Source: Phoronis australis (taxonomy: Eukaryota > Animalia > Phoronida). Taken from it: a stretch of DNA of 64,000 nt. Below are positions 20,501 through 61,723 of the stretch, piece after piece. The stretch is taken from contig NMRA01000006.1 in assembly GCA_002633005.1 (NCBI GenBank), forward strand, positions 1,520,888 through 1,584,887. Direction: 5' to 3'. Made by a program: the position numbers and the translations under genes. Each line of letters opens with the position of its first letter. Within the stretch, counting starts at the first letter, position 1. The notes beneath the pieces are model-generated. The model searched no databases and had not been told where the DNA came from. It saw only the letters and a list, made by a program, of their open reading frames with translations.

Positions 20501-23500
20501 TAGAGTAGACTTTGATTAATGAAGAGTTTTTTGTTGCCACGTAACTAGGACGTTCTATGCCCTGTCTGCCTAATATTACTGCAAAAAGCAGTAATTAATC
20601 ACGGTAGATAAAAACTCCACCATTTACAAGCAAGCTGCGACAGAAAGCAGACACTGCTAAGGACACTATTGATTTCTGTTAGTTAGTTCACCCCGTGTCC
20701 ATGCATGTCATTCCAAAGGCTTTCATGCAGGGATTTTGCCAAGTCATTCTACTAACTGTTCTTGGGGTTAGGTTCAGTTGTGTAGGGGGGGTTCCTCAAC
20801 ATATTAGTTTAGTTGGTTGATGATTGGTAGACTGTTGATTCTATCAATGGTTTGCATTGGTGTGAGGTCATGTGGTGTGTTTGAAGATATCCTATCCACC
20901 AGCGAGGTTGGTACCGTTCAGTGATCGTGAGGAACAGGTAGGACAGCTCTGGCATTAAAGTGGTATCTGGTACAATATTCAGTTGAAAAATCAACAGATG
21001 GCTCTGATAATGAATTTACTTTCGAAACATAGATCAACCTAGGATGTTGCCCTTGCCTCCATGGTTGCCTTGACGACTGCCTGGGTGTGTTTTGTGTTGG
21101 TGTTTGTGTGTGTATGTGTTGGTGGTTCTTAAGGTGTGTGGTTGTGCAATCAATGTCATCTTACTGTCCATTGTTCAAACAAACTGACTTGATGTGTAAT
21201 TAAGGAGTGGCTTTTGAGACTGCCGCCAGACGTGCAGCAACCAAAGGGCAGCTTGCCCCAGATCAGCTGAGCATCAAAATACACAAATGAGTCACCGGTG
21301 CTGTGAGGGAAATGATGCGAGTCGATCTCCTGTGGATTAACTATATGAGCTGGGTGCACATGCACTTAGCTGACTGTTACATTCATAAATATGAAACGGA
21401 AAACTGCCATTTGTTGTTGCTGTTCTATTGCGAAACTATAATCGTGGAACGTGTTGTAAGTTGTATTGTTTAGCAAGTGGAGAAACTATGACCACTGCTT
21501 ATTCATTTAATGTCATGTTTTGGGGTAAAATCTCTCATTTTTGGATAAAATTTCCAAATTTACGCTTTTAGATTCTAACATTGTTGTGAATGCGCACAAT
21601 GTTTCAAAACGTCGTATCTGTGGTACAGTATTTGATCATGGAGATGCATTTAATTTGTTTCGTTTCATACTACATGTTTCATGAAAAAATGTTAAAAACA
21701 AAATTTCACTTGTCCCCATATTGTGTCCTAAATTGTAGAGAGTTTTCCATAGGTTACAAACTGCAGATTGCTGTAAAATTTTTACTTAATATCTCTGCTT
21801 TCATCATTGCTTGGGCTTTCTGTCCTGTGGTAAAGTAGTCACTGCTTGAACGGTAATTATCTCTTAGAACCGGTTTTCTACACTGAATAATTGGCATCGA
21901 ACTGGTTCTCAAAACCTGGGACCCCCTGTAAGTGACTGTAGCCATTCAGCCTATAATTTGAGCATTACTTTGAGGTGCTTGTTTTTTCACATTTGCGTCG
22001 AAACTTTTGTGTTTTTTTATTTTACCATTTTTGGCAATGGTGCTACAGGCTTTGTGTTCTTTTTACCATATCTGGGGGGTATACAAAAAGGACTCCTTAA
22101 AGGCGAAATCTTAAGACGTGTTTGGTTTATTTATGGACATTCAGAGGAAATTACTCAATTGTTAGACATCTTCGGAGACAACTGTTGTTAATTTATTCTC
22201 TTGATAAGAAAAGTTCGCCAGCGTGACATTATGATTTCTTTTCAGTGGGTATTCCCAGTATTAAGTGGAGCGGTACGGAGGGTGATTACAATGTGCTGGT
22301 CATGGAACTCCTCGGTCCGAGTCTAGAGGACCTATTCAACTTCTGTAATCGCAAGTTCAGCACAAAGACAGTATTGCTATTAGCCGACCAGCTAGTAAGT
22401 GGACAGTGCCAAGGACGTCGTTCTCACATACGGATGTATTGGGACTGAAATGATGCACTGGCGCACAGTTCAAGGGCCCTTTGAGCCCGCACTTAACATC
22501 ACAATGGGGGTGGGGTTGTGTTTGATTTGTTTGATTTTGGTTTAGGTTAAACTTTTTGTATAGAACAAAGACTCGACGCTACAATGTCTGTAACTGACAT
22601 TTTTTTATAAAAACATCAAGTTGGATTTACTTGGAAATCCTGAAGTGCTTTTTGCTAACATTTGTCCACAGCATTTCGGAGTCCAAAGAAAATACGTTTT
22701 CTGAGTCCTGCGTATCAAAATCATTAACAACCGCATTGAAATTAACTGTGCCAGTAGGCTGTTGCCTCGTTTCAGTCCCGGTGCGGGTGTATGTGTGCAC
22801 GCGTGCGTAGGTGGTTCCCAGTAGATGACCCATCTCTCTATCGCGTCTGTCTGTTGTTGGTTTCAGTCGGCATCCCCACCATCAAGTGGTGCGGGGCAGA
22901 GGGCGACTACAACGTGTTGGTCATGGAGCTACTCGGCCCCAGCATCGAGGATCTGTTCAACTTCTGCTCGCGCCGCTTCAGCCTGAAAACGGTGCTGCTG
23001 CTGGCCGACCAGCTAGTAAGTGCCCGCCCCGCGTACCCACCCCACCCTGCCCCCCTTCCCTGTCCCCTGGGGGGTAGTGTGCGGGGGTGGTGGGCGTGCT
23101 CTGCATGTTGTCACCGCGTGACTCGATGTTGTATGCATCCTCTCTCACCCACCACTTGACGGTTGTAGCCGGCAGTTACACAGGAACGTCCATCCTCTAG
23201 AAGCACCTATGGGTGCCTTTCGAGGAAAATTGTCATTGCTATTTTAAGAGGGCATTCACATGTAAATTTACCTTTTTTAACTGAAAAGTAACTATTTCTA
23301 TGAACACTGCTGTTAACTTGACCAATTGAGTTTCAGAAACGACAAAACAGTTTTCTTCACAAAACCCCCTTGTGCCACCACACATGGACTGCCAGACTAA
23401 ACCAAGTGTCTTGTGTGAAGTTAGGCTGTTGTGCTATAGCTTCTGCTGCCTTATCTGCCATTTTCACATCCACAACCGGTCATCAAAAAGGTCATTCGTT

Positions 23501-26500
23501 GTGGACGTCCTCATTATCTATGCTAGCACTTCCAGTCCTAGTTGTTGTTATCTCTGCTAGATGTTTGCCAACAACCCTGTGTGTGTTTGTGTGGATTTGA
23601 CTGATAGTTTGTTGATGACTTAACTTCATTGTCCCCCGCCACGCAGTCAAACGCGAAGGAGGGACATCGTATTCATGTCTGTATGATGCATTGTTTTTGA
23701 CTTTATATATTAAGAAGGTCAATTCTAATGTCCTTGATGTCATTTTCAAAGCTGTGAGAAATTTAGTTTTGATCTGAGGGATGCACCTGAGTGATATGTC
23801 AGGGTGGGAGGTTTCGATTTCGTTCATGTTGGCAAACTTGGCCTCATCTTCATGGTAGTAGCGAGTAATTTAAGAGTGGTCGTACATCTCAAGGAATCTG
23901 TTGACTGTGGAATTTAGGAGTTGGATTTAGAAAATGTTGGCCCGGCATCTTTAGAAGGTACAAGCTACCCAAACAATATAGCTCAGTCACCCAAGAACAT
24001 AGCTCGGCACTCATTAACACGACTCACTGACCGTTAAAGTCAGATCACTGGCTCCTGAAAAGCCTCACACAACACGACTTAGGCATCCAAATGGCATGGT
24101 TCATGTAACACAAACATGACCCAAGGACGAAATGTTCACTTTTTTGTTTTCCACTTTGCCATCTAGGGGCAATAAAAAGTACAATGTAGAAATCTCTAAA
24201 GACTATTCAGTTCTGTAGCAAAGTGCTACCTTTCCCCTGTCATTCTAGTCGCCAATCCGATGGTTACGCACACATCATGAATATTATTAATGTCCAACAG
24301 TTTTAAGCCCCTGTCCTATGAATACATTTGTTTAAACAGATTTTTTGTGTAACAAATGACTACTTGGCTTCACGTGATTTGGTATGCCTGAGCACTTTTT
24401 TTCAAGTGTATACAGACCGCCTTGTTGCTAATTGCTGCATTTGACAAGTGTTGCAGCAAGACTCTTATTGCCGTGGCCTGCCTATCTAGGTTAGTCGGTC
24501 CTCACAGTACACATAATCATTCTCATGTTTTGGACGTTTTGTCTCATGCAGCATGTGCTTTCCTTAGAATCAAATTTTGCTCCATGAACCACTTTCTCTC
24601 TCTTGTCCAGTTGTAGAGTACAGACAAGTTGAGTAAGCTGGCACTCATGGTACAGTCATTGCAATTCTGGAGCTTTCATATTAAGATAACTGAGCTGATG
24701 GTCGTTTTTCAAATGCATTGTATAGTGGTTGTCTGTTCGCAAATGTCCACTGACATCACTGAAAATTTGGAGACATGTAGAAACCAGGGTTGTATTTAGT
24801 AGGCGCAACAATTTAGCGAGTTAAGGTTGGATCAGATGACACGTGTCTTGAGAAACTTTTGCACAAAAAAATGCTGAAAGTCTGCGTATTCATCCAATGC
24901 TTCTGTAGCTTGTGTCAGTTTTATATTTTTATATGATTGTTGTTTTGTCATTTTCGCACCAAAAAGCAGTTGTGTTCCGGTGATTTCAGTTCTAGTGCAT
25001 ACAAGAGATAAGTGTTGTTTTTTGTCTTGCGGTTTAATACTCATCAAGTTTTCTGTGATGTCACCGAATGTTTCCAAGCCATCAGCCGTCTGATACTGCA
25101 TTTGAAAAACGACAGCAGACCGGAAATTCCCCAAATTAATGTACGTGTATGTTATCAAGTGCCAAATGTTTGCAAAAAGCAGTCTTGCTAATTGGTTTGC
25201 TAAAATGGCTAAATGATTTCAAATGTTTTAGCAAACTGGGCTGAAGCATTTAAAGGCTATCATGAGCCTACTTTGATACACTGTACAGAGAGCGACGATG
25301 GCTGGGGTTCATGAGGATCAAAGTGTGTTCTTAAGCATTAAAGTGCATGAGAACGTAAATACCCGCTGTAGCTCGTAAGGAACGAATTGTGCCCGTGAAA
25401 AAGAAAACCTTCGTGAGAACTTCCTTTCAGATTGTTTAGGGAGGACTGCTTACCTTGCTGTATATGCTGGCTTGTGTGTCACATTTAGTGTGTGAAACTA
25501 CTGTCTGTACCAGTTACATGTGTTGGTTTATTATCGAATGTGCTTTCTTATTCTTCTAGAGATTCGGTTACACAATGACAATAAAAAGTCAGTCCTAACA
25601 ATACCTGTTCTGCACAAGTAGAATGTTAGACTGTGCTTAAATCTTCTGTAGGGAGATCTTCAGTTTTTTTCAAGAAGCAAAAATGTTGCTTGCTCATTAA
25701 GTGAAGTTTGATATTTTGGGTGTTCCAAACGACACGCGTGTGCCTTATGTGCATTCGCCTTTGAGGGTGTACGTTCTCCCAGACTTTCCTGACTTTATAA
25801 GTGTCTGTTCACAAAACATGATAAAATGAAAAGTGCAATCTGTCCGCTCACAGTATCCCGATTTCGGTATTCAAATATGGAACCATCTGCTGACATTCCC
25901 TGACCAAGGATCATGCAAATCCCAGAATTTGTTACACTCACCAAATATATGAGCCAACACGCATTGTCAATACGTTTGTCATCGTCCACTTCAGGGAAAC
26001 TAACCCGCCAGATACTGATCTGCTTACAGTTCCAAGAGGGTCTTTTCGAGACCAACCTTGTTGCATTATCACGACACCTGGTGGTTTACTTTGCTTACTT
26101 TCTGTGTAGATAAGTCGAATAGAATACATCCACTCCAAAAACTTCATCCACCGTGACGTCAAGCCAGACAACTTCCTAATGGGCCTGGGCAAGAAGGGCA
26201 ATCTGGTGTATATCATTGACTTTGGCCTAGCCAAGAAGTACCGGGACGCGCGCACCCACCAGCACATCCCCTACAGAGAAAACAAGAATCTCACGGGCAC
26301 GGCCCGCTACGCCAGCATCAACACACATCTGGGTATAGGTGAGTTGAGAAACGACCTCGTTGACGGGAGAGAACGCATGGCGAGTGGATTTGGGGTTGTG
26401 GTTTCAGAAATCCGAAGGCCGGAGAAAGTTTTGCACAGCCTTTGAAGCCTTGGTTCATTATCACACAGTCCACGTAAGAACTAGTTCTCATCAAGGCTCT

Positions 26501-29326
26501 CTGTAGACTACCGTGCCTTAAAGTTCAGTCGGATCTTGGCTTTGCCTGGACATAGTTTTGCAGTTGATCTCAGTATTTCCAACAAGTATGATTTTGCCGT
26601 TTTAGAATACAATTTTTGTCCAACTTGTATTGAGTTTTCTTATTGTTTTTACAAGGACTTTAAGATTTTCACTGTTGAAAGAGTTGCATTCACTGCAGTT
26701 CTGTGTCCACATCTGGTCGTGTAACTGTCACCGTTTCATTCCCGCTGTAGAACAAAGTCGGCGAGATGACATGGAGTCGCTGGGCTACGTCTTCATGTAC
26801 TTCCTGAAGGGTAGTCTGCCTTGGCAGGGCCTTAAGGCGGCCACCAAGAGACAGAAATACGAAAGGATCAGCGAAAAGAAAATGTCCACACAGATAGAGG
26901 ACTTGTGCAAGGGCTTTCCCAGTGAGTATTATTGTCGTAGGAGGTGGTAGTGACAAAAATTAATGCGCGACACCTTCTGGGAGGGCCTGTTTATTAAAGG
27001 CTTTATGGCCTTGACTAGTTTGGCTTACTTGGTTCTTGTTAGAAAATCCAGTTTGAAGTATTGGGAGATTTGGCAGCTGTTTAGCAAATTACAATATGTT
27101 TGCTTTTAGTAACAATTCGGTGCATTTATTGCAAGAACACACAAACTGCCCATGGTATGGACATAGGTATTCGAACACGTACATGAAATTTATGTTCCCG
27201 TCTTGCTTGAATTTTCTATTTTGGAGAGCATTGGTTATGAATTTTTTTCAGTGCGTGTATGTAGTTTTGAAGTGCAGGTTTGGAATTTGTACTGCAAATT
27301 TGGCGTTTGCTAGATTAGTGGATCCAAGCGGGAAATTTTGAGGCATGGAGTCATTTCCACCTCAGAATTTGGTTTGTGGTGTTGTCATTAGTGTAATGCT
27401 GTTGAAGAGCCAAAACAATGGGGTCCATTTCAAAATTGTAGCTTTTAAAAATGATGCTGCGTTAATGACCACAGTATGATACAACCATCTTAGTAACTGT
27501 GCATTTAAACTTTATTAATAAAATGGGTTCTTGAAGTTAACAAAGTCCTCATGGTTTTAGCATAACATCCATTTCAGTACGAGCACACTTGTGGGTATAA
27601 CATAATAACACTAAACGAATGTGAATTACGTATAAGAGACATTGAACCAAGAGTTTTATGCCAAGTCAATTTTTAAAAAATCCGGTAACTCAGCACCATC
27701 TGTACTGATACAGAGCTGTCAGGTCTGTGTTGAATGGTTACATGTTGATTGTGTGTTACGGCAGTCTGAAACGAGGCACAAGTTTTCTCATTCGCATGTA
27801 AAATAGAAGACAGAATAAGAATTATAAGTGATGACTTGCTCTGCTTCATGTAAATTGTCTTGCATTCAGATGTTCCGGGTGGTTCGTTATTTGTTTTTGC
27901 ATGCATGTAATCTTTGCCCGCTGATAGATTCGTTGTCTTTTTGTACGATATCGTAATATCTGATTATAAGTTGTTACTAAAACTTTGTCCCTGTGGCATT
28001 TGCAGCCGAGTGTTCGACCTACCTGAACTTCTGCCGGTCGCTACGCTTTGACGACAAACCCGACTATTCCTACTTGAGGCAGCTCTTCAGAAACTTGTTC
28101 CACCGCCATGGATTTACCTACGACTACATTTTCGACTGGAACCTGCTCAAATTTGTAAGCAGCACCCTTTGATAAGTTCCCCGTCGCATGGTCCCTCCCT
28201 CTCTTTCTCTTTATTAATGTTGTTTTCCGTTGTTGGATTTTACGTGGATTGTTGTTTATGCCCTCTGTAGGAATGAAGTCCGCAGTGATTTGTTACTACA
28301 CCAAAGTCTTCAAAGAATTTGACATTGAATGTGTGGATTTTTTCACTTTCTCACAATAGAATTTCTGTAATGCTAATGAGCATCACAAGCTGCGTTCAGT
28401 GGTGCACCCCATAATATCCAGTATGTATTACTAAAATAAGTCCCTTCCTTGTTACTTGGTATGAGCTTGAATTCTTTCTTATTGTTTTCCTTGACGTGCA
28501 GTCAAAGATGTGGTGACAGTAATTGGGTCTTAGGTCAGGCTATTAGGGTCAGGTCAATTTTTCAGCCTTAACTGATTCAGACCCTTGCCTGTCTTCCCAG
28601 ATAATTAAAAGGCTGATGCTCAAACTCCGTATGTGCTACAGTACATGCCAAAAGTAATCAGGGAAAATACAATTTCCCCGTTATGATGGGTCAGTATCTG
28701 CCATGTCAGGTCATGCTATTTATTCACTTCGAAGGTGAATTTCACTTGCGCTCGGTCACCTTGATGGGGAAATCCACCTGCGCTCAGTCGCCATGACAGA
28801 GAGTTCCGGGTCATTTTGTCTGATTTTTCATGGCGTGAACTGTACCTCACAAATGCTTGCTTGTTAATTTTCTGCCTGCCTAGTCCCTTACGTAATCTGT
28901 TCAGTGCCCAAATACTTTTCACTTATGCCTGTTGAATGTTGTATGGGTGTTCAGATCCCTGATGTGGAGATAGAGCCATTGGCGTTAAGCTTCACAAGTT
29001 ATGTTGTAATGTTTCATGGTGTTTAGCCTCTGTTGTACTGTGCTGCATGTTGCTGTCGCTAGAGCATGTTCACCCTCCTTGCGGTGGCTTTTGACCATCT
29101 CGACCCCTGTCCCCTAGGGGGGTCTGTCTGCATGCCCGGCCCCGTTCTAGTGCTGTGTCTGTCTCTCTCGTTTGCAGGGCGGTCCGGGTTCGCGTGCGGC
29201 ACATGAAGACCGTTGCAAAGACCAGCTGAGAACACCGGTAAACCATCTGCGTGTTGAGTCACATCGTTTGCCAACGTCCGACTAAACTAATCACCATCCC
29301 CTAGCTTGGGTTGGCCGCCATGTTTC

Positions 29327-48100: not shown

Positions 48101-51100
48101 AGCTAGAGACGGTGGTCACCGTCTAATTGACATGTAGCCAACTAGCTAGCTGTATGAAGACTATTGTCAACATAATCGGTAGACAGCTTTGCACCAAGGC
48201 TACTAGTAGCTGACAGGCAAGTCTGTACTTGTTGGGCTTTTTAGTTTTTGCAATATTCGTAAAAGGATTTCGATTACGAGAGTACTTGTTCAATGTCGAA
48301 AGATTTGATGATATCAGCTGCCTCCAAGGTGTGTCCATCAATGCTCGAAAGGTACATAAAGTAATATGATTTTGATATTTTATCCAATCTTTCAGTGCAC
48401 AGGATGTATGAGAGTGTGCTACACCTTGTGGAAGATATGTGACTGAAAACACATCTGACTTACAGAAATGTTTTCCTCCGCTGAAGCTCAGTTGGTGTGA
48501 ATGGATTGAATTGACTCAAATATTTGGTATTGTGGATATATACCACTAGCCAACAAATAATTTTCTCAGCGCCCTATGTGATTGTGTGATGCAGTAAGAT
48601 TTTTGTGTGAAACATCCGGAACACGTCAAAAAATTGTTATTGCTGTGCATATAAGCAGAGCCAATATTTGCTTTGCGCTCATGGATCTTAACAACAATTA
48701 TAGTTGGTGCGGCCTAACTGTGTTTGTAGCACAACCAAAACTAAGGTTGTCTAATGGTGCTTCAAAATTTTATGGAAGACAAAAGGTACCCATAAAACCA
48801 GCCATATTTAGCTTGAAACATTTTATGTGATGTATGATAAAACACTGTCATGTTGTTTCTCAAATATTTTGGGCCACGTCACACGTGTTCAAGGTGTGGC
48901 TTGTTAATGAAATATTTTTAGCACAATGTGTTTGTTTCAGCTAAGAGAAACGATATTTCAATTCGCTCAGAAAGAATTGGCCCCACATGCTGACACAATT
49001 GACAAAGAAAATGGCTGGTCTGACCTCAAGGTAGGTAAATCAGAATAGACAATGTCTGGTGGTTGTTGTGTGGTGATAGCTGTTCCCAGAACATTACTTG
49101 CATACTTGCTCCACCAAAGCCTGGTTATGTCAGATCTCCTATTAATGAATCCGAACCCAGCTGTTGATCTACCAAGAGAGGTAACGACCTGTTATCGAGA
49201 CTGCATAGTTAAAATGTCAATGTTCTCACCAAGCTTTTTGGTGGGACGCCATTCTCAAAAGCAGAGCAGTCTCTACAAGATGACTTGTCTTGATGTTTCA
49301 TTTTATTAACTGCATGGTCTCGAGTAACAGCGAACTGTCACTTTGCATGACCAAACTGATGTCTCACTGGAAAATTTATAGCAGCGAGTGGTCTAAATCA
49401 GAAGTTAGTTGATCGACCCTCTTAATTTTGCATATTTTCACACTAAGATAATGGCATTGCAGCGCTTCCGCTATTGCCGTGGTCATAGAAAATTTTTAGT
49501 CATCTGTTGTCACAATAAGATCCTAAGTGGTTGTGTTCACTGAACTATAGCATTTTACTTCTTAGGAATTCTGGAAAAAGTGTGGTAATCTTGGAATCCT
49601 GGGTATCACAGCTCCAGGTAAGTGGGTAGGGGTTCACATTTGCATAGAGAAGTTCTCCCCTAGAGGTATTTGCTAGCAACATGTTATACTACAAGCTGTC
49701 TGTTTTAGCAGTTGATTAACTCTTGAGTCATCATCTATTGTGTGGCGAGGCAATAGTCATTCATTTACAGGGGTCCCCAGCTTTTGAGAACCAGTTTGGT
49801 GCCCTTTATTCAGTAGAGAAAACTGGTTCTTGAAATGCTGGTACCCCTGTAAGTGACTATTGGTGTGGCAATACAATAGCGACCACTTGGTTATGTTCAT
49901 TGTTAGGTATCCTCTTAGCAGATCAAATCGCCCATTAAACTCTAAACAATTGATTTTCCCAGTTGTTCTGCTCTCTGTTTTTCGATCAGGATTCACGTAT
50001 ACTGCCCAAGTGTGGTGACTGACAAAGTGTAGCTATGTATTTGAAACCGTATCATTCAATTAAAAAATTCTCGCACATTATTGCTCTTCACCTCAAAAAT
50101 ATTCCATTGTCAATGTTTAGAGCTATATTTTGTGTGGATGTAACGTTTAGGATTTGGGAAATCTAGCTTCACGGGTGTGTAAACAATCCCTGAAAAACGG
50201 TCTTTTCTATTTCATGTCATGTATGTGTATTTCTTCCTGTAGCTGAATATGGTGGTAGTGAAGGATCTTACTTTGATCACGTGCTCATCATGGAGGAGCT
50301 GTCAAGAGTGCATGCTGGGATTGCCTTGAGCTACGGTGCTCACTCCAACCTTTGCGTAAACCAGATTGTACGCAATGGAAATGATAGGCAGAAAGAAAAG
50401 TTCCTTCCAAAAGTACGGTTCAATAAGTCTAAAAGTTTCTTTTTAAAGACGATTTGGACCACTTAGTCGTGTGCTTTGACTTTGTTTAAATCAGCTTGCA
50501 TATCATGAATCTTTATGTAATAATCCACAGTGATTATGTTGTATAACATACATTAATCCCATATACGTGTGAATATGCCATGGAATATGATGTGGAATAT
50601 GCCATTGAATACGGAAAGTAGAGCCACTCCTTATTCAGTGGTAGAGGCCGTATTTCACGGTTGATGTACAATCTCCTGGTGGAGTATATTCTCCTCTATT
50701 GTGGCAAGTTTGATTGGGCTTGTTCATTTGGGCTACCTTAATTATTGTTCGAAGGCATCATTCCTGAAAAAGCAGTTTTACTGCTCTAAAAACTGTAAAC
50801 TTTCAGCAGAGATTTACCGACGAAAATTCAAATGCACGGTCATCAAGTGACTGTTTTTAGGCTTCGCTAGTTTTAATCTGGATCCCTTATTCATTAGCGC
50901 TTCCTGGTGAACGTAAAGTTGCCCACTAGAACTTATTTACTTCTTTCTACAGTTGATCTCTGGCGAAGCGATAGGAGCTCTGGCAATGAGTGAACATGGC
51001 AGTGGGTCTGATGTGGTCTCCATGAAATTGAAGGCTGAGAAAAAAGGTAGCAATGAGCAGAGTTCAACGTGTAGTGTGCTGCTGAATAACCTAGGGGTGT

Positions 51101-54100
51101 GTTCTATTGATGTAAGAGTCTCATGAGAAAAGCTGGTGTGATCACATTCTTCGCTTGTATAGCATGGCATAATCTCACAAAACGTGCGTGGTCTTGTTTT
51201 CACGAGTTTCTCGTGTCTATGCACCGCAGGCCTGGGGAGATGGTATGGCTCAAAAATTTGTGACAACTGGGGTGGGAGGCAGCACTGATACCTTTCGCCC
51301 ATGTTGGTGTAGTCCTGGCTATGCAACTGGATGTGATTTGTTGAGTATCTTGTTTGCAGTTAGCATGGGGTGGACATTTCTTGGGAACACCAAAAATCAA
51401 CTTCATATAAATATGTGGGCGCATATTGCCATCATCTGCGTCTGAGCGTCTGGGCATCTGGTGTCCGCAGCTGTGTCTCCTAAACTCCTTGCAGTATCTT
51501 GATGAGAAATTGGCAGATGTGTTCCTATGAAGCTGACAGATGGCGACGAATTTCGGACAGATCCGACTACCAGTGTGCCCCCTAGTGACAATTTTAGTTT
51601 TTTACATTTACTTCTGTATCTTCAAATGTCCTCAATGGATTTTCATGAAATTTGGCTCTGGGCACCAATTATTAAGATGATGCTATCGTCCTGTTTTCGG
51701 ATGGATTCGATGCATTTGGCGCCACCTAGTTTTCATTTTTACTATTTTCAAGTCTGTTTTTTGGCGTCTGCCTCTCTATTAACCAATCCACTTTAAGGAT
51801 TGTGAAAATTAGCATACATGTGAAGAGGATGGGTGACGATGATTTTACGATGACTTTGACACCTCCTAGTGGCAGTTTCTTTTTTGCGCCTATAGCAGGA
51901 TCTTTATGAAATTTAGCGAGTGCATTTACATCAAGTTGACAACGAACAATGACTGTCAGACAGATCCGATCAAAGCTGTGCCCCCTAGTGACAATTTTTT
52001 CTGTTTTTTTTCTGTTTCTCTGAAATTCATTGATGGATTTTTATGAATTTTTTTTAAACGATGACATGTTCCCGTTTTTGCATGGATTTGAGGCACTTGT
52101 GTCATCTAGTGGCCATTTTTACTGTTTTCAAGTCTGTTTTTTGGCATCTGCCCTCTATAGACCAAACTACTCCAAGGATGATTGTGAAAATAAAATTGGT
52201 GTATACATTCTTAGTGTGAGGAGGACGGTTGATGATGGTTTTCTGACGACTGCAACTACTGTGGCGTATCCTAGTAGCAGTTTATTTTTTTTTTGCGCCC
52301 ATAGCTGTATCTCCTAAGCCCACTGCAGGATCTTTATTAAATTGAGCAAGTGTATTTGCATGAAATTGACAACAAACGACGACGACTTTCAGACTGATCT
52401 GACAAACGCTGTGCCCCCCAGCGGTAATTTCATTTTTTCCGTTTTTATCTGATTCTCTGAAGTTCCTCGACGGATTTTTATGAAATTTTGTTAATAGCTT
52501 TCTATTCAAGGAATGATGACATGTTCCCTTTTTTGCATGGATTCGAGGCATTTGTGCCATCTAGTGGCCATTTTTACTGTTTTCGAGTCTGGTTGATAAA
52601 GGGGCAGATGCCAAAAAACAAACCACTCTATGGATATTGGCATATACGTTCTTAGTATAAGGAGGACGGTTGACGATTTTCCGCTGTGCCCCCTGGTGGC
52701 AATTTCATTTTTTCCATTTTCCTTTGTTTCTCTGAATGTTCCTTGATGGATTTTTATGAAATTTGGTAAATAGCTTTCAATTAAGGAACAATAGCATGTT
52801 CTTGTTTCCGACGGATTTGACATATTTTGCATCATCTAGTGGCCACTTTTATAAACACCCCTAGAAGTACACCATTTGCGTAACATTCATGGGCGCATTT
52901 TAAGGCTCTGCTTAGCTATTGTTAGAAATGTCCTGATAAAAAGCGGTTGAAATTTGTTCTTTGATTATAACTCTATCACTTAAATAATCTTTCAGGTTGT
53001 AATAAGTTGTACTTTCGATTGTGGGCATCTCGGAGTAACTCACCAACTAATTCTGCGTAGAAGACAATGTGCAATATTGCAAAAATTGGCAGATTTGTTG
53101 TTTTTATAAAAACGAAGTAGGACATTGATTTGTATTTGATAAATAGAAAACACGGAGTCAAGAAATGCAAGGTTCGTAACACATTGAATATGATGTCTTC
53201 ACCATGTTTCATCCTTCCTCTCTTCAGGCGATTACTATATACTCAATGGCACCAAGTTCTGGATCACCAACGCACCTGATGCCGACGTCCTGGTCGTCTA
53301 CGCTAAGACAGATTTGTCAAACCCAGTCCCTGCCCATGGTATCAGCGCATTCATCATTGAAAGAGTGAGTTGTGTCAGACGTAGCTACTGAAAATGAGGA
53401 ACGCCCTGTAAGTGAAGATTACACCTGTTGCTTTGCAGAATGGACCACTGTTTACCCAGGTTTACAAGTTCATTGCCTTAGCTTCCATCAAACAATATTT
53501 TGTGACATTAAAGGCATTAACAACTGCATTTTTAAAAGCCTTTTAGCTATTTTTGACCAGAAATAGTGAAATTTTACCGTTTCAAGAGTCCATCCTCAAC
53601 ACTCGCCTTCAACCATTTTCTTTGTCAACAGTAATATCTTTATATTTTGGGTGTTGTTACAAAGCAAGACGACAAAGCGACAGGTTTAAACAAAATGAAT
53701 TTTCTTTTTTTAAACTCAAATGCACTCGTGCCAATCAATGTCATTTAATCAGATTTCACACAGTGTTCACGTTTTAGCATGCTGCATGACTCCGCTACAT
53801 AACACCATAAACAATGTTTAATGTCACATAGGTATTACTCATCAGGCTGTTCAAAAGGCAATGTAATTTTGTTGTTGTCATTTACTTGTACTGAACACTC
53901 TTACAACAAAACCCCTTGATGGTCATGATAACTAAAAACTAACCCGAGCACACATCACCAGCCTTGTTAAGAGCAATATTTTTGTGATCCTGGTCTAAAG
54001 TGTAATAAATTGTCAGTTCTTCTCAAATCTTGAAATCATTTTTTATCTGAGTAAGGAACAAGATCAAGTCATTTTTCTAACATGAAGTGGCCTAAACTAG

Positions 54101-57100
54101 AAGTTTGGTTTTCAACAGAAGGTGTGGCTTTCGTGTCCCTTCAAATGACTCACTGTTATGATATTGGACCTTACTCAGACAAGAAGTGAATTTTGAGCTT
54201 GGAAAGAACTGATGAGTCACTGTATATACTGAAATGAAAGTAAAGTATGATATTCTGTTGTTGAAGACTGAACCCAACACATTGGAATTAATTGACTAAA
54301 AGTAATATGGCTGGAATTAGGCTAGTTCCATTACCAAACACCAGATGGAGCAACAGTGATGAAGCTCACACTCCCTTGAGTCGATATTTTCCCACAAATA
54401 TGGATTCTGCGTAGGAATATACACAATAGGGTTTCATAAGAAAGCGCTCTCCACATGACTGAACCTGTGCCTTGAAAACAAGACTATCCTCCCATTAAGA
54501 CCTGTTACTGTTGTGATGCAAATTGCCTTTGTAAATTGTTACTAGAAGTTCAAAATTAAGAATTTTTCTCTTTACTGGCATTAATTACATAACCATTATC
54601 ACTGAATTTATGTTTTACTTGTATAGGGCATGGAAGGTTTTAGCACATCTCCAAAGTTGGATAAGCTGGGCATGAGAGGGTCAAATACTGGTGAATTAGT
54701 GTTTGAAGACTGTAAAGTACCAGGTAAGTTTGGCGGGATTTGTAAACTTGACGAGCTCTGTCATTGTAGTACGAAAACTGAATTTGCATAATGAGGCCAA
54801 AAAAGCATAGTTGGATCTAGTCTTCACCCTGACTAGTGTTGAGACCTGTGCTCACTGACTGAAAGAAAAAAATCTGCCTGGCTGCATCAATTTCAACCAA
54901 AGTCTTGTGTTTTTTAAAAAGCTTCACAAAGGTATGTGAACAAAGTTTGAAATGCCATGATTTGCAAAGCAATGAATCAAAAAAAAAAAAACAAATCCCC
55001 CGATTTTGCTCTTCATGTGTAGATTTTCTTTTTTTTAATTTTTGCAACTAAAAAATACGCCACCTACTAGACTTTCAAAAACGTCGCAGACCTGAACCAG
55101 CTATGCTTTATTTTCCTGTCCCATTTTCAAAAGAAGTTGTTAATCTTCTCTGGTTTCATTTTTTCTAGGCTTTACTGGCTAACCCTCGGTTGCAAATCTT
55201 CTGTAAGTTCTTATGAAAATTCTTTCTGAAAATGTGTAGACTCAAGTTTGAGACAAATTTTGAAAAACGATGTAGGATTAATTCAAATTTTCATGGGTTC
55301 GGCTTTTTGAGTCAATCTGTAGATAATAAATCTGTGAGTGTCGACAAGGAAAAGAGAGGTCAGTTTAAAAAAACTTTGAGATACGCGAACTGCCAACAAA
55401 CAGACTCGTACAGTTCATCTGTAGTTCGATTCTACAAAAAAAAACTAACAAACTACATTGCAAATTCTATAACAATTTGAACAAAAATACACAAATAGGG
55501 CTAATTCCAAAAAAACAGAATTAAATAAGAAATTGAATCATCTCAATACTGCGGGTCTCAAAATATATGTTCATCCTCTCTTGTCCACAGCCCAAGATAC
55601 ATTGGCAACACCCAAGTGTGCTGATCAGAAGTCAGCACACCTGTTCATATGCAAAATACGGGTCATATGACATTCAGAACACATTCAGCCCACACAAAGC
55701 TAAAGAGAGACAAATAAGCGTGAAGCTCCCTAAGCTAAAATCAAGTAGTCAAACATTAAATATCTGAGGCTCTCTAAGCTGACTCAGAGCAAAATATCTT
55801 ACAAAATCCAATATTTCATGTACTCCAGCTCAATTCTTTTGTTCATTTTATTTGTAGAATTTTGTGTTATCTGTAAAACATGAAACCACTATCTCAGAAT
55901 TTCTCATGCTCTCTTTTTTGCAACTAAGTGACATTAGTTCTATTATTGTTTGTTACAAAGCTGAAAATATCATGGGCATTGAGAACAAGGGTGTCTATGT
56001 GTTGACGAGAGTTTTTCGTGGCTGGTGGCTCTCTTGGGTACGATTTTCCCATGGCAAACAAACCAAACATCCAGGGATATTCTCAGCTCTCTCCCCATCT
56101 CACCTCTATGCTCAACTCAAGTTCTCTCCTGTGCTGCACGGATTCCTTCTGGATCTAATTCCATTTAAGAGTGTATGCTCGCCTTACTAGTTGCCATCCA
56201 TGGGCCTTTTTATGACTGGAGAATTGTGGGGACTACATGTCCCTAGCCGTCAGTTGGCTGGAAATGTACATTCTCTGGTTTCATTGGATGGTTTCACACT
56301 GCTTGGCTGACCAGTGTTCCACAATCCATTAAGGTATTCCACCAATTTGAGAAGTTCTGTGGTCCCCGGATGTTTCTGATTTTTCTTTGGTTTAACCTGA
56401 GCTTGGAGTAGCTGTGCATATCTCAACTCACTGCATTTTTCAAAGAAAATGTGCAAGATAAAAGTTGATTGTGTTCACTTGTAATTTACTCCCATATTTC
56501 TAAGCCATTGGTCACTGTTTGAGGCCACAAAGTGTGTAGTACTGCCAACCTTTTCTTATGGAGATTTAGCACCCCTTATTTTGCAGGATTACCCCGTGTA
56601 CCGACTTAAGTTCATTGGTGCCTTCTAAGGCTAGATTAGCCACCACTTTATTTTAATTTGAAGTTGGAAATTTTTTCACCCATGTTGCTCTTTACATCAT
56701 ATGTGACTTTAGCCTGCTTTGTGCCAGTTAAACTGAGCGCAAAACGAATTCTACCTCCTTACTGAAGATCGTCATTATCATACACTGCCTAGCATTCAAA
56801 ATACTTCATTGGCTCCCCGTTTGTGTTTCTTGTTTAAAGCTGAGAACCTTCTGGGTGGTGAAAACAAGGGTGTCTATGTCCTCTTTACTGGTCTTGATGC
56901 TGAGAGAGCTCTTGGTGCCTCTGGACCACTGGGGTAGGTTTGTTCAGTTTTTATTTGACACCTGCCAGTCATGACCTAAGCTCCTCCCACTTGCTCACTT
57001 AGGTACAAAGAAAGAATGGCATTTATTGGTAGAAAGTCTTTCTTTTCAATTGGTCAAGGGTTTACTAATAAACAGAAGTACTAATGTCCAAAATTTTTTT

Positions 57101-60100
57101 TGACCTCATTTGTCTGAAATATGAGGCCAGAGGTCAAACTAAAAAGCAGTTTTGGACACAGGTGCCATTCGAGATATTCGCAAGAGGCCGTGGGTCACTT
57201 ATCCTCCACAAATTAAAGGATCATGTAAGTGTAACTTATTTGGAAAAAACAGCTTTACCTTGGCGTATTTGTCTATTACTTCAAGATCAGGTTATTGCCC
57301 CTGCAATCGCTATAATTCATGTTTTGCTCTGATGACTTAATGTACCCCTCACTGTGCCCCCCCCCCCACCCCGGTACTCCACCCACAGGTCACCAGGTCG
57401 CCAACCCTCATCGGCAAAGCCTGAAGTAGCCAAAACTAAGTTTTACTGAAGTGATTGCAAGCTTTAGAATTGAATGGAAATTTTTGGGTCTCATAAGCGG
57501 AATTTCACATCATTTTTAAATATTTTTCATAGGGGAATGGGTCTCATATTTGGCCTCAAAAATCGAGGCATCAAGGACCCTGCCCTCATTCTTCAACTGC
57601 CAATTACTCATGAGGTTCTCAGCTGGGTGCTATCTTCCTGTTGCCTTCTGACAGTTTCTAATGCTGTACTGCTTAATCCTGACGGAAGCTGAGCAACGTA
57701 TGTTTTGTTGCTTAGATGTTCAGCTTGCTTACTCTAACATGCCATGCGAAATGCACCACCTGCTACACTTTAACTTTTTCACAATGTGTGAGCTACATGT
57801 ATGGTGCGTTCCGGGGATGAACAAAAAACAAGACTACTCAAAATAACTCTAGTGTTTCGCGATTATGCTCGGGAGCTTACTAGCATACTCTAGCAAAACA
57901 GCGAAGTGATTGGTCGGTGAGGTTGGAATGTTGAATTATGGGATAGAATTTGGGGTGAAGATTTCTGGCCACAAGTACTTGGTTTGTGTATTGCGTCTAT
58001 GGAACGCATTGCGTCTACGGAACGCATTACAGAATGGTGTTGTCAGTGCACTCTCAACTCTTCCCAGTCCTTTCTCGCCACTCTTACCATCCCTCTGTGA
58101 TTGCTTTTGATTACAGCTGAGAATCTCGTGCGTGAACAAAACCGGGGTGTTTACGTTTTAATGAGTGGCCTCGATATCGAAAGGCTCGTTCTTGCTGCTG
58201 GCCCTATTGGGTGAGTCAAGTTGATGTATCAGTTATGTATCAGCTGGCCCTATTGGGTGAGTCAAGTTGATGTATCAGCTGAATAGATTTTTTTTATAGA
58301 TTCTGGAAGTGATAAAAGTCATTGTTTACAATTCAAAGAAGTTTGCATTTTTGTCACTTTGCATTTTTTGTCGCGGGGGTATCACTTATTCATTTTACTT
58401 TGATGTACTTATTTTGTAGTTGTANGGTCAAAAAATGCCACCCATTTTTAATGCATCACTTCTTACAGGAACGACCACCCATAATTTGAGTTTTTTTCTG
58501 AAGACCACCACCCATGAATTTTTATTTCTACTGCCGTCCCCCCCCCACACGGATTTTACTGGAACAGCCCTTATGAATAATATGGTCAAAACAACTGTTT
58601 TGGTTTCATTGCTTGCCAGCGCTTGTTTTGTGACGTATTTTGAATTATACAGTGTTATTAATTCACAACATTTCTTCATTGGAAGTTGTACACTATTTGT
58701 CTTCACGTTCTGTGCTTCGTAACAGCTGATCCAAGGGAAGATGGCGGATATGTACACAACATTGAATGCCTGTCGGTCATACACTTACAATGTAGCAAGA
58801 GCTCTGGATAACGGACATCACGTGCCGAAGGTATAGTATATTTTGAAAAGACAAATGGGAGACTCGTGAACCAATGATAACTAGTTGTGTGTGGCTTATG
58901 ACCTGTAGAGTTACTAAGAGGTATGCGGAAGTATTTGATCACAGCGGGTAACGGCAAACTTTTTTACACGCGCGCTCTCTCTCTCTCTCCAGGATTGAAG
59001 TTGTAGATGGTGGAAACGTCAGAATGCACTCAATTGCAAACCTCGGCTAACTCCCGAAGCGGAGACTACTGTGTTATGTTTTTTTGCTAAATTTGTAAGA
59101 ATGGGCACAATACTGAAAAATCCACGTAAAACCACTGTAGTCACATTTGGTGTGCCCGGCAATCAAACGTGAGCATTTGGACTCAAACTTTGCAAACGAT
59201 GCAACTTTTGAAAAACACGCACGCTTGCTCAAAGTAAAGTAAATTCAGTTACTTCTTGTTAATAGTTTTCTTAACAAATGTTCAAGTATAGTCTTGTTTG
59301 AAGTTGTAATGTTTTAAACTTAACAAATAATATTTACAAATAACAGTGAGCAGGGCTTCCTCACGTGTGAGAACTGAATTGACTTTGAGAGAGCACAACT
59401 AAACAGTCTCACCGCGTTTCTTGAGTTGGGGCTCGTCTCTGTTTGAATTAATGTAGATATGGAACTCGCCGCTGAAGATGGGTCAGTTTAAGAAGTCTGC
59501 ATGTCCTTCCGACTGGGAGTACATACAATTGTGACACTCGATTTGTCAATCATCACGGAATTCCGGCATTGCTTGGTTGGCACACATTTAGTGTTTTGCA
59601 GAGACAATAAAACGTAACGTGCATAGACTTCTACTTTGCACTACTTTGGGATTCGCCCATGTAATATCAAAAATTTACGTACTCTGTGTTATTAACCAGT
59701 TGTGTCATAACACATTCCTTAATTCATGAGAGAAATGGAGTTGTTCCATCAAGTTTTTGGTCAATGGGTAGTAAGTCCTTAGTTGATATGGTATTTGAAA
59801 ATTTTCGGTGTAAATGGGGTTGATCTCAGCGTCGTCGTATTAGTCTTTGTTGAGTAGTAAGTTTTTAAGTGCCATCTCTGTCAATCATTTCAAGTCCATT
59901 GGTAAGTGGAAAATGTTCAGCACATTCAACAAACCTTGACTCTTGCCATCTCTATAAATTATTGTGAACTTGATGCTTTGATAAATTTTGTCATTTTACC
60001 AGAAATTCTCTTGATAAACCTATCAGGTGGCAGGAAGTTTGATTGAGAAACATTGGAATGACGATAATGATAGTGATAATGATAATGATAATGATAGTGA

Positions 60101-61723
60101 TAATAATTGATAATGGTAATGATAGTGATAATGATAATGATAGTGATAATAATTGATAATGGTAATGATAGTGATAATAATTGATAATGATAGTGATAAT
60201 AATTGATAATGGTAATGATAGTGATAATAATTGATAATGATAGTGATAATAATTGATAATGGTAATGATAGTGATAATAATTGATAATGATAGTGATAAT
60301 GATAATGATAGTGATAATGATAGTGATAATGATAGTGATAATAATTGAGAATGATAGTGATAATGATAATGATAGTGATAAGAATTGATAATGTTAGTGA
60401 TAATGATAGTGATAATGATAATGATTAATTGATAATCGGGATCACATTTCCACTGCTCTTGAAACTGACTTTGTTGTATTCAAAATTCATAACAATAGGT
60501 ACCTTATCAAGGTATTATGAAAGGTACCTGAATCAGAACCGTAAGCCTTGACATATTAGAGCTTTCGAGCCATCAAGGGTCCTTCTTTAAAGACAACTCG
60601 CATCACTTTGTAGACTCTAATTGAAAGTAAGTTTTGAACGTCATTCAAAACATTGGTCTTTTGGCACAAGACTCTCTGCCCTCTTCTGTCACCCCTGTTT
60701 TTATATTTTCAGGACTGTGCTGGTGTTATTCTGTATGTTGCCGAAGCTGCCACCAAAGTGGCATTAGATGCTATACAGATTCTAGGTAAAGTATACATTA
60801 AAAAATAGTGCCGGTGATCCAATACACATTAGATCAGACATGCGCAGGCTAGTAAGCTTTGCCCATTGTACTAAACACCTGAAACCATTTTTTTCATTTA
60901 GTAACATAAACTATACATGTAACACGTATACACAAATTAAGACTGAGCTGAGAAGCTAGAATCCTGAGTCGAGGATCTAGCAGTGGGGTCCAATGGGATT
61001 TGAATCCATGACACTTAACCCACTAGATGGCACTGCCTCCTCAGAGTGGCTGATTAAGTAAGCTTTATTGTTTATCTTTGTATGCGGGGCTATCAACAAT
61101 ATGACATGATTTTCATGAAAAAAATCGTCGAAAGTTCAATAAAGTGAAATCAAAACTTACATTAATTTAGGAAACTGTAGCAGCATTTTGACTATTCATT
61201 TTCATCATCTACAATAAAACATTTGGTCATGTTATTGATATCATAATTTTGTTAAATTTTACTAAAAAGACATGGTCACATGACCCAACTGATGGCAGAC
61301 TGATAAAAAGTCGAAAACAAGTTTCCTCAGGCTTTCTACTTTCAGAAAATGCATGCTTTTTTACTGATATAAGCTCTATTAGTTTTAAAGATATTTGGCT
61401 GAATGCACAGACAGATAAGGTCCTACATAACCTGACACTGTTCATAAGGTCCTACATAACCTGACACTGTTCATAAGGTCCTACATAACCTGACACTGTT
61501 CATAAGGTCCTACATAACCTGACACTGTTCATAAGGTCCTACATAACCTGACACTGTTCATGTTCGATTCCTAGGTGGAAACGGTTACATCAACGACTAT
61601 CCCACTGGGCGGTTCTTACGTGATGCTAAGTTGTATGAGATAGGTGCTGGCACCAGTGAGGTTAGACGACTCTTGATTGGTCGAGCTTTGAATGAAGAAT
61701 ATGGGGTCAAGAGGTCAGCGTGA
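39200..61723 (+). CDS. IVD: Isovaleryl-CoA dehydrogenase, mitochondrial (multi-exon)
   Basis: Exons 39200-39340 (transit peptide, ..[16 protein letters not shown]), 48941-49030, 49566-49617, 50243-50412 ([13 protein letters not shown]), 50953-51046 ([14 protein letters not shown]), 53228-53364 ([10 protein letters not shown]), 54627-54723 ([12 protein letters not shown]), exon 8 variants 56840-56933 / 58117-58210, exon 9 not found (N at 58425), 58726-58830, 60713-60785, 61575-61723 ([17 protein letters not shown], the IVD-type G-A in place of the MCAD Y-E). Confidence 0.95.
39536..43227. repeat. ~1.3-kb near-identical duplication around single-N junctions in IVD intron 1
   Basis: 39536-40828 is repeated at about 41019-42297, each copy ending at an N (40829, 42298); the last ~170 nt recur at 43060-43227. 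Confidence 0.85.
40830..41009 (-). mobile_element. Ty3/Gypsy LTR-retrotransposon integrase C-terminal fragment
   Basis: KKDYD...[10 protein letters not shown]...[26 protein letters not shown] matches the GPY/F-type module downstream of Gypsy integrases. Confidence 0.75.
45400..46711. mobile_element. Kolobok-like non-autonomous DNA transposon with ~310-nt TIRs and THAP remnants
   Basis: TTAA at 45396-45399 and 46712-46715; termini a(a/g)gcgaagg; arms 45400-45710 and about 46395-46711 are inverted copies; ORF 46236-46445(-) [11 protein letters not shown]...W...VCGKHF is THAP (C2CH)-like. Confidence 0.75.
51405..52920 (+). mobile_element. Helentron/HINE (DINE-1/pearl-like) non-autonomous element with internal tandem modules
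   Basis: 5' gtgggcgcat followed by a gtcY microsatellite, repeated modules (gtgccccctagtg..., ggattttYatgaaatttgg) and a 3' gggcgcat; a second copy starts at 63598. Confidence 0.6.
55961..56037 (+). pseudogene. IVD: IVD exon 8a, decayed duplicate (pseudo-exon)
   Basis: acaaag|CT GAA AAT ATC ATG GGC ATT GAG AAC AAG GGT GTC TAT GTG TTG ... GCT GGT GGC TCT CTT GG|gtac; 77 nt versus 94, so frameshifted, and lacks the SGLDxE segment. Confidence 0.75.
56840..56933 (+). CDS. IVD: IVD alternative exon 8b (intact, divergent)
   Basis: tttaaag|CT...CTG GG|gtaggt; 94 nt, phase 1-2; (A)[30 protein letters not shown](G). Confidence 0.85.
58117..58210 (+). CDS. IVD: IVD alternative exon 8c (canonical)
   Basis: ttacag|CT...ATT GG|gtgagt; 94 nt, phase 1-2; (A)[30 protein letters not shown](G). 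Confidence 0.92.
58197..58278. repeat. 36-nt duplication of the IVD exon 8c donor
   Basis: gctggccctattgg|gtgagtcaagttgatgtatcag occurs at 58197 and 58243. Confidence 0.9.
59270..60060 (-). mobile_element. Degenerate Penelope-like retroelement fragment
   Basis: Minus-strand remnants SIKFT (59963-59977), YYMGES (59649-59666, YIG-like) and IYIN..NRDE near 59430-59465; many disablements. Confidence 0.4.
60063..60436. repeat. (GATAAT/GATAGT)n microsatellite array
   Basis: About 370 nt of degenerate hexamer repeats. Confidence 0.95.
61415..61561. repeat. 29-nt tandem repeat x5 just upstream of the last IVD acceptor
   Basis: ataaggtcctacataacctgacactgttc x5 perfect copies, ending about 13 nt before exon start 61575. 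Confidence 0.95.

Follow-up and report, generated by a model that had tools for sequence, protein, structure and literature searches.

Phoronis australis carries a gene for isovaleryl-CoA dehydrogenase (IVD), the leucine-breakdown enzyme, in which two versions of the catalytic exon, 8b and 8c, form a cluster that is old and likely mutually exclusive in its splicing. The cluster probably yields two enzymes: the canonical one with Leu258, and an isoform with Gly258 that is predicted to have an opened pocket floor and to act on longer acyl-CoAs. Exon pairs of this kind, with a Leu257 plus Gly/Ala258 signature in the alternative exon, are also found in a brachiopod, a nemertean and molluscs. The alternative exon keeps the catalytic Glu as well as Asp252 and Arg255, which bind CoA, and the remaining pocket residues, which lie in constitutive exons, are unchanged.

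Organization of the IVD exon cluster

The window, a stretch of 64,000 nt, contains the gene on the + strand. Exon 4 (50243..50412) is constitutive and retains the pocket residues corresponding to human L127, A131 and L135. The constitutive exon 7 (54627..54723; 97 nt, AG/GT) is the common upstream exon of the cluster, and the joint leading into it (53364-54627) was covered by 19, 17 and 11 reads in the RNA runs X1, X2 and X3, respectively. All three paralogous copies of exon 8 that an earlier note on this DNA had proposed could be located, and two of them, 8b (56840..56933) and 8c (58117..58210), indeed have the same length and phase and intact splice sites, both being 94 nt long, flanked by AG/GT and in frame with exon 7. 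Exon 8c is the canonical catalytic exon with Val257 and Leu258, and 8b is the alternative, expressed catalytic exon with Leu257 and Gly258. A minor in-frame cassette of 33 nt (55170..55202) lies between exon 7 and 8c; it was joined to exon 7 by 2 reads in X1 and 3 reads in X3, and to 8c by 3 reads in X3.

Downstream of the cluster, exon 10 (58726..58830; 105 nt) and the last coding exon (61575..61723), which is constitutive and retains G406/A407, were identified. No match to exon 9 was found between 8c and exon 10 by tblastn and by reading of the window, and a single N (58425..58425) marks an assembly gap at its expected place; in L003, a comparison locus from another animal, this exon is 82 nt long. 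Duplications of 97% identity lie at two other N gaps, in contrast to the 61.7% DNA identity of 8b and 8c.

The proteins encoded by 8b and 8c are identical at 17 of 30 residues, and just 4 of these 17 use the same codon. Because of this codon usage and the low DNA identity, the two exons are regarded as an old duplication and not as a haplotype artefact; an artefact of haplotypes or assembly was also ruled out by the splicing of both exons.

Exon 8a (55961..56037), which had been described as decayed, starts at the position given for it and has its own GT donor after 56037, but with 77 nt it is 17 nt short and frameshifting. No joint between exon 7 and 8a was present among the joints listed for X1-X3, and its read depth in the three runs was 0.52, 0 and 0, by which its use as an exon was ruled out. 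The 3' end of 8a reads FFVAGGSL, with Val at position 258, and resembles a third exon class of other animals. The L003 locus has three intact 94-nt copies with AG/GT in the interval from exon 7 to exon 9; the third class comes first, followed by the Gly258 class and the canonical class. Exon 8a may be what is left of an ancestral third version, one with Val258.

Alternative splicing of exons 8b and 8c

Alternative use of 8b and 8c, as the earlier note had suggested, could be observed in the RNA. Exon 7 was joined to 8b (54723-56840) by 13 reads (2, 5 and 6 in X1, X2 and X3) and to 8c (54723-58117) by 14 reads (3, 2 and 9), small counts that come from about one fifth of each run, with joints of fewer than 3 reads left out. 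Read depth in the three runs was 3.43, 1.62 and 10.1 for 8b and 3.03, 2.63 and 8.75 for 8c, and the strand of the reads agrees with +. Exon 8b or 8c is spliced onto exon 7, at similar levels, and the possibility that 8b is never spliced in, which would have spoken against the proposal, does not apply. No joint leading from 8b or 8c to a downstream exon was seen: exon 9 is missing at the assembly gap, and the loose read ends listed are repeat-derived. Full-length orthologous models with either exon exist in other animals.

A joint between 8b and 8c was not listed in any of the three raw-read runs, although decay could hide such transcripts. Double inclusion had been predicted to shift the frame, and a stop indeed arises at the second codon of 8c; because this stop is immediate, a transcript with both exons would likely be degraded. 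The locus has several of the properties by which mutually exclusive exons are recognized: the homologous exons lie in tandem, agree in length and phase and have undamaged splice sites, each is joined to a common upstream exon (by 13 reads for 8b and 14 for 8c over X1-X3), and no transcript with both is seen among the joints with at least 3 reads in the three runs. The cluster is likely mutually exclusive, and strict exclusivity would be set at the splicing step. Steric exclusion was rejected as the mechanism on the basis of the distance from the 8b donor to the 8c acceptor, which at 1183 nt exceeds the usual steric range.

A candidate pairing element in the intron

An intronic element at 57598..57627 (+) is complementary to the acceptor and the first ∼20 nt of both 8b and 8c, and more weakly to 8a. 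Predicted pairing energies with 8b and 8c were -33.4 and -34.2 kcal/mol, compared to best values of -23.9 ± 2.2 and -22.1 ± 2.6 for shuffled sequences, and 0/60 shuffles reached either value; the pairing with 8a was reached by 1/60 shuffles. Such complementarity beyond chance between one element and all of the alternative exons is one feature of docking-site/selector control. As a candidate site of competing pairing, the element would mask the acceptor of either 8b or 8c and so impose a one-at-a-time choice, and decay of double-inclusion and double-skip transcripts would back up this choice, 94 nt not being a multiple of three.

In Dscam and srp (PMC6071210, PMC4691838), there are likewise tandem duplicated exons and a single element, the docking site, that can pair with any of several selectors competing for it. 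However, in the docking/selector model described there pairing exposes an exon, whereas the pairing predicted for IVD covers the 3' splice site and would hide the exon. The element is known here from predicted pairing; it is present in the window and was not found in L003, and no shared intron motifs or pairing partner were found in the loci L001-L003, of which L003 is the only complete one and is distant. In the literature searched, no paper on an RNA-pairing docking site in Lophotrochozoa was found.

Active-site residues of the two isoforms

In an alignment to human IVD chain 1IVH, both 8b and 8c place a Glu at E254 (human E286/E254), the catalytic residue on helix G. Exon 8b retains E254 and R255 and carries M248F, S249T, L253A, L256A, V257L, L258G and G260S. 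The retained Glu and Arg and the change of Leu258 to Gly had been noted correctly, but V257L, which is present in all 10 alternative exons compared, had been overlooked. The M>F, S>T and L>A changes are real, yet F248, T249 and A253 are not diagnostic and were rejected as specificity markers since they occur in canonical IVDs, e.g., P0005, P0045 and P0102.

The pocket role attributed to Leu258 agrees with published work, in which human L290 (mature L258) and L127 (mature L95) form a barrier at the pocket floor against chains of at least C7, and G406/A407 leave room for a beta-methyl branch (PMC12369846). This barrier is complete in the 8c isoform and broken in the 8b isoform by the Gly at the L290 position, with L127 constitutive and unchanged. 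Gly-Ala at G406/A407 is present and lies in a constitutive exon. The 8b isoform is an IVD by descent, but IVD specificity is not assumed because of this Gly. With the floor Leu lost, longer chains (C6-C10, straight or 3-methyl-branched) would be admitted, and since G406/A407 are constitutive, the 8b enzyme would still tolerate a beta-methyl branch. A changed substrate range of the 8b isoform is predicted on these grounds.

The Phoronis gene shares with human IVD (PDB 1IVH, 8SGR, 9JQ3-5; PMC12369846) the fold (TM 0.95 for the model of the alternative isoform P0255), the helix G catalytic Glu, D284/R287, L127/A131/L135 and G406/A407, as well as L290 in 8c. The human structures contain a single version of the segment, whereas Phoronis has a second expressed exon, with L290 changed to Gly and V289 to Leu, and a decayed third copy. 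MCAD (ACADM), which has V284 at the L290 position and accepts C6-C12 chains (PMC12369846), resembles the predicted 8b enzyme in this smaller residue, and Val is also found in the third exon class. In MCAD, however, a different structural element carries the catalytic Glu, E401, which together with Y400 prevents branched chains from entering. An identity as MCAD was rejected, as Gly-Ala stands at the position of E401 and the preceding Tyr and both isoforms keep the IVD-type Glu.

It is also conceivable, though rather unlikely, that the exon switch is real and the 8b pocket is reshaped instead of deepened: Leu257 would replace part of the bulk of Leu258 and the helix would repack, leading to a preference for a differently shaped short substrate (for example 2-methyl-branched, bulkier or sulfur-containing) or to altered kinetics with isovaleryl-CoA. 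The invariant V257L, the small residue at 256, the change of Pro262 to Cys in 4/10 alternative exons and the unchanged L127 fit this explanation, as does a plant IVD paralogue that has shifted to 2-methylbutyryl-CoA. In LCAD, the cavity is lined by the third and the fourth residue that follow the catalytic Glu (PMC10925408). By their offset these positions would map to IVD 257/258, and V257L could partly refill the cavity left by the loss of Leu258, which speaks against a fully opened floor, as does the constitutive L127. On the other hand, the published role of the changed Leu is in depth, not width, and the width determinants G406/A407 sit in the constitutive exon (PMC12369846). An opened pocket floor is the preferred reading of 8b.

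Structure models were considered for both isoform types. The model of the alternative isoform P0255 has the IVD fold (TM 0.95 to 8SGR), with helix G broken at residue 291 and a pLDDT of 68 over 281-290; that of the canonical isoform P0177 also folds, with a pLDDT below 50 at 276-281. Around helix G, neither model is confident enough for the two to be compared. The broken helix, together with the change of several helix residues to Gly/Ala, would suit an 8b product that serves as a low-activity or regulatory subunit with a weaker helix G, by which IVD flux is tuned in mixed tetramers without a new substrate. This is improbable, as every alternative exon has kept Glu254, Arg255 and Asp252, a conservation for which an inactive subunit would have no use, and given the uncertainty of the canonical model in the same region the models say nothing firm.

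Conservation of the exon pair

Counterparts of 8b, whose absence or disruption in relatives would have counted against the proposal, were found in three phyla. Isoform pairs of the same length were present in 9 of the 20 protein clusters looked up, i.e., in Lingula, Tubulanus, three oysters, a scallop, a clam and two abalones; no alternative exon was found in the other 11, which include siboglinid annelids and Aplysia. The same exon swap and signature as in 8b/8c are seen in the RefSeq pairs of Lingula anatina (X1/X2, XP_013382495/XP_013382503), Tubulanus polymorphus (XP_074647381/2), Crassostrea virginica (XP_022315157/8), Saccostrea spp., Pecten maximus (XP_033735706/14), Ruditapes philippinarum (XP_060561675/6) and Haliotis spp., isoforms that are automatic models and are unexplained in the database. 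The two isoforms are ∼11 residues apart (9-14 per pair), with all differences confined to a single segment, no longer than 31 residues, that corresponds to this exon. In 10 pairs, column 258 is Leu in 10/10 canonical exons and Gly (8) or Ala (2) in the alternative ones, which also have a small residue at 256, and Glu254, Arg255 and Asp252 are invariant in 20/20 exons. Compared with these RefSeq alternative isoforms, 8b additionally carries F248, T249 and A253.

Among 234 motif matches in the proteins gathered, 217 have Leu at 258, 5 Ile and 12 Gly/Ala, and all 12 of the latter are alternative isoforms or 8b itself. The degenerate motif had no exact match in 185,579 prokaryote genomes, a search by exact pattern that misses near variants. 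A homologue search with 8b and its intron as query returned 36 candidates, of which none was scored.

Cross-phylum quartets favoured the grouping of alternative with alternative exons in 15/15 cases, and in 12/15 when columns 256-259 were removed, with none favouring within-species duplication. No grouping was starred in the 30-column tree. Without columns 256-259, the alternative exons need 7 changes on the tree, and 11/500 shuffles were equally low, a result that would also be compatible with convergence. The Ala258 exons of abalone cluster with the third class, away from the Gly258 class. The weak tree signal without the motif columns, the decay of 8a in the Phoronis lineage and the clusters without an alternative exon would fit copies that are functionally equivalent and kept by drift, or that arose repeatedly and converged without a shared function. 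This is very improbable in view of the class-specific pocket-floor signature fixed in three phyla, the predominance of Leu258 among the motif matches and the equal expression of 8b and 8c; moreover, repeated convergence would itself imply selection.

Discussion

No paper describing the IVD exon swap or its isoforms was found in the literature searched, in which subscription journals are thinly covered. Enzyme isoforms with differing kinetics that arise from mutually exclusive exons are known from pyruvate kinase M1/M2 and ketohexokinase A/C, where likewise one gene with duplicated exons gives two enzymes. In contrast to these, the catalytic base and the residue at the pocket floor are both part of the swapped IVD exon, of which there are at least three versions, and the cluster is found in several invertebrate phyla. 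As a tentative extension, a lophotrochozoan or earlier ancestor may have turned IVD into a splicing-controlled dial of pocket depth, with at least three exons (Leu, Val/Ala, Gly), of which an RNA element lets one be used at a time by masking 3' splice sites. The gene would thereby have gained a second dehydrogenase, so far undescribed, that acts on longer acyl-CoAs with a beta-methyl branch, e.g., isoprenoid-derived chains from an algal diet.

Acyl-CoA dehydrogenases are known to shift their chain-length specificity by gene duplication. In IVD, splicing would do so instead, by a swap of the exon that carries the base and the pocket floor, and this switch has been maintained across brachiopods, nemerteans and molluscs, lineages that have been apart since the Cambrian. 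It predicts that the mitochondria of oysters, scallops, clams and abalone have a so-far-unassigned dehydrogenase activity, and it supplies natural Leu, Val, Ala and Gly variants of the residue that has been proposed to determine the chain length of IVD.

Three copies of the catalytic exon in the IVD gene

The isovaleryl-CoA dehydrogenase (IVD) gene, which is spliced and lies on the plus strand, probably begins with a first exon near 39.2 kb and reaches its stop at 61723. For exons 2-7, 10, 11 and 12, both position and splice sites were identified; exon 9 was not found within the window, and its expected place holds an assembly gap, visible as an N at 58425. The name exon 8 follows the human exon numbering. 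Among the proteins compared, the constitutive exons were most similar to Lingula (78% identity), and both were joined in a quick 65-row tree (SH-aLRT 94, not starred), which tentatively points to a probable lophotrochozoan, perhaps a lophophorate.

Exons 8b (56840-56933) and canonical 8c (58117-58210), both on the plus strand, are 94 nt long with AG/GT borders and open after exon 7, and, as the earlier note had described, share length, phase and intact splice sites. They are identical at 61.7% of bases, with the same codon at just 4 of 17 identical residues. Compared with the human IVD chain 1IVH (mature human numbering), 8b carries M248F, S249T, L253A, L256A, V257L, L258G and G260S, and retains E254 and R255. 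Exon 8a (55961-56037, plus strand) is indeed decayed, being frameshifting and 17 nt short, though both splice dinucleotides persist. Joining 8b to 8c results in a stop at 8c codon 2.

The plus strand also carries, ahead of IVD, exons of a presumably casein kinase 1-like gene (22758-26950), a family label based on recognised motifs. Tandem duplications of 97% identity flank single-N gaps (39534-40828/41017-42297 and 13596-14154/14156-14725) and are likely unmerged haplotype overlaps of the assembly. Short interspersed repeats in IVD introns (57903-57950 and 58426-58573) are strongly transcribed and draw hundreds of reads from other loci. By eye, the last IVD introns show a microsatellite of the (GAT/AAT) type and tandem copies of a ~30-base unit (60056-60431 and 61413-61560).

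Exons 8b and 8c in transcripts

Exon use was studied in three raw-read RNA runs labelled as the same species and taken from a single study (X1-X3), of which about one fifth each was read. Exon choice was taken from the upstream joints with exon 7, as exon 9 falls in the assembly gap. Joints from exon 7 to 8b were covered by 2, 5 and 6 reads and those to 8c by 3, 2 and 9 reads in X1, X2 and X3, respectively, so that each of the two upstream junctions was supported in all three runs; exon 6 to exon 7 joints had 19, 17 and 11 reads. Among the joints listed for these runs (threshold 3 reads from 2 starts), none led to 8a or from 8b to 8c. Read depth was 3.43, 1.62 and 10.1 for 8b, 3.03, 2.63 and 8.75 for 8c, and 0.52, 0 and 0 for 8a, and reads over all three copies were on the expected strand. 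In the contig set X4, coverage was limited to exons 10-12 and repeats. It is very likely that 8b and 8c are used alternatively in functional transcripts. Because 8b-8c joined transcripts contain a stop, their decay could add to, or mimic, exclusivity.

A 33-nt in-frame cassette between exon 7 and 8c (55170-55202; 5 reads into it, 3 out) would insert 11 residues immediately before helix G and is probably a cryptic exon.

The exon pair in other animals

Twenty protein clusters, picked by animal name and several members rather than at random, were checked. Nine contained a same-length isoform pair with 9-14 differences, all inside the catalytic exon (Lingula anatina, Tubulanus polymorphus, Crassostrea virginica, Saccostrea echinata, S. 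cucullata, Pecten maximus, Ruditapes philippinarum, Haliotis rufescens and H. asinina), counterparts of the 8b/8c pair. The Mizuhopecten X2 isoform likewise carries the alternative form. No pair was present in the other 11 clusters, from siboglinid annelids (two in one cluster), sea urchin (2), Aplysia, C. angulata/gigas X1, scorpion, spider (2), rotifer (2) and one unnamed source, which does not imply absence from these species, since a cluster may lack some isoforms.

Across the nine pairs and the window, D252, E254 and R255 are unchanged in all exons. Leu258 is found in 10/10 canonical exons; the alternative exons have Leu257 in 10/10, and at position 258 eight of them have Gly and two Ala. 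Among the proteins compared, 234 motif matches had Leu258 in 217 cases, Ile in 5 and Gly/Ala in 12, every one of the 12 coming from 8b, an alternative isoform or part of such an isoform. The 464-residue IVD model of Nucella lapillus (P0002) had an unusually high exon 4 score (144 bits), and this region may hold a duplicated segment.

The isoforms are present in RefSeq as automatic models, there labeled X1/X2. Literature searches on splicing and on specific residues of IVD or acyl-CoA dehydrogenases, mostly outside subscription journals, gave no paper on these isoforms.

Further exon versions and their origin

A scan with a degenerate form of the alternative motif matched 8b alone within the window, none of 185,579 prokaryote genomes, and three metagenome-contig loci, all with introns. 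In two of these (L001, L002) the Gly258 exon directly follows exon 7; in L003, exon 7 is followed by three intact 94-nt AG/GT copies in the order Ala258, Gly258, Leu258 and an 82-nt exon 9. A profile search over 1.84 billion representatives gave 602 hits at E 0.001. Motif matches within the best 150 of these carried, at column 258, Leu (110), Val (13), Gly (11), Ile (8), Ala (7) or Met (1); three proteins lacked the motif. Because the ends of P0286 and P0287, two members of the Val258 class, match the FFVAGGSL remnant of 8a, read in its own donor frame, 8a is most simply a relic of an old third exon version. P0272 has two non-canonical exons in tandem, and further variants carrying Val258 or Ala258 occur among P0272-P0405 (e.g., P0322, P0337, P0297, P0299, P0376). 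Such sequence comparisons suggest more than three exon-8 classes across animals. P0340, a spliced IVD-like protein with Gly258 and an altered helix at the L127/A131/L135 positions, is possibly a separate paralogue with an independently opened pocket.

Cross-phylum quartets favored a shared origin in 15/15 cases, and in 12/15 without columns 256-259. In a 30-column tree, all but one of the 20 non-canonical exons fell together (SH-aLRT 94), as did nine Gly258 exons (88); nothing was starred, and the abalone exons were placed with the third class. With the motif columns removed the signal was weak (7 changes; 11/500 shuffles equally low). A single ancient origin of the alternative exon is favored by these alignments, short of proof.

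A candidate pairing element between 8b and 8c

An inverted-repeat search revealed one stretch in the 8b-8c intron complementary to both acceptors. When 1011 intron windows were scanned for duplex formation, 8b (-32.4 kcal/mol), 8c (-34.2) and 8a (-23.4) all paired best with 57598-57627; exons 7 and 10 paired best elsewhere (-24.4 and -22.8). Of 60 dinucleotide shuffles per exon, none attained the observed value for 8b or for 8c and one did for 8a; these tests are not independent, as the exons are paralogous. Since the predicted pairing spans the AG and the first ~20 bases of the exon, it would conceal one exon at a time. This is the opposite of the docking-site model, in which, as outlined in PMC6071210 and PMC4691838, pairing activates an exon. 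Alternatively, the element could be an inverted exon fragment without function; duplex and shared-element searches of L003 found no equivalent. That pairing controls the 8b/8c choice is given about an even chance.

Predicted substrate pocket of the 8b isoform

According to PMC12369846, L127 and L290 of human IVD close off the bottom of the pocket to chains of at least C7, with T121 and V284 at these positions in ACADM, G406/A407 admitting the branch, and D284, M280 and R287 binding CoA. By alignment to 1IVH (offset 32), L290 is mature L258, confirming that Leu258 lines the acyl pocket. L127, A131, L135, G406 and A407 are all kept in constitutive exons of the window IVD. With G406/A407 kept and the floor Leu removed, the 8b pocket is therefore predicted to be deeper and would still admit the beta-branch. 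Against simple deepening, L127 stays in the 8b isoform and V257L is invariant in alternative exons; in LCAD, according to PMC10925408, L294 and I295, three and four residues after catalytic E291, both touch substrate. AlphaFold models of the Tubulanus pair had mean pLDDT of 82.8 and 83.0, with low certainty near helix G in both, and the alternative isoform matched 8SGR with TM 0.95 and rmsd 1.7. Longer-chain acyl-CoA specificity of the 8b isoform is predicted and somewhat favored. The 8b/8c pair would be a case of a known kind, in which an enzyme is tuned by homologous exons that exclude one another.
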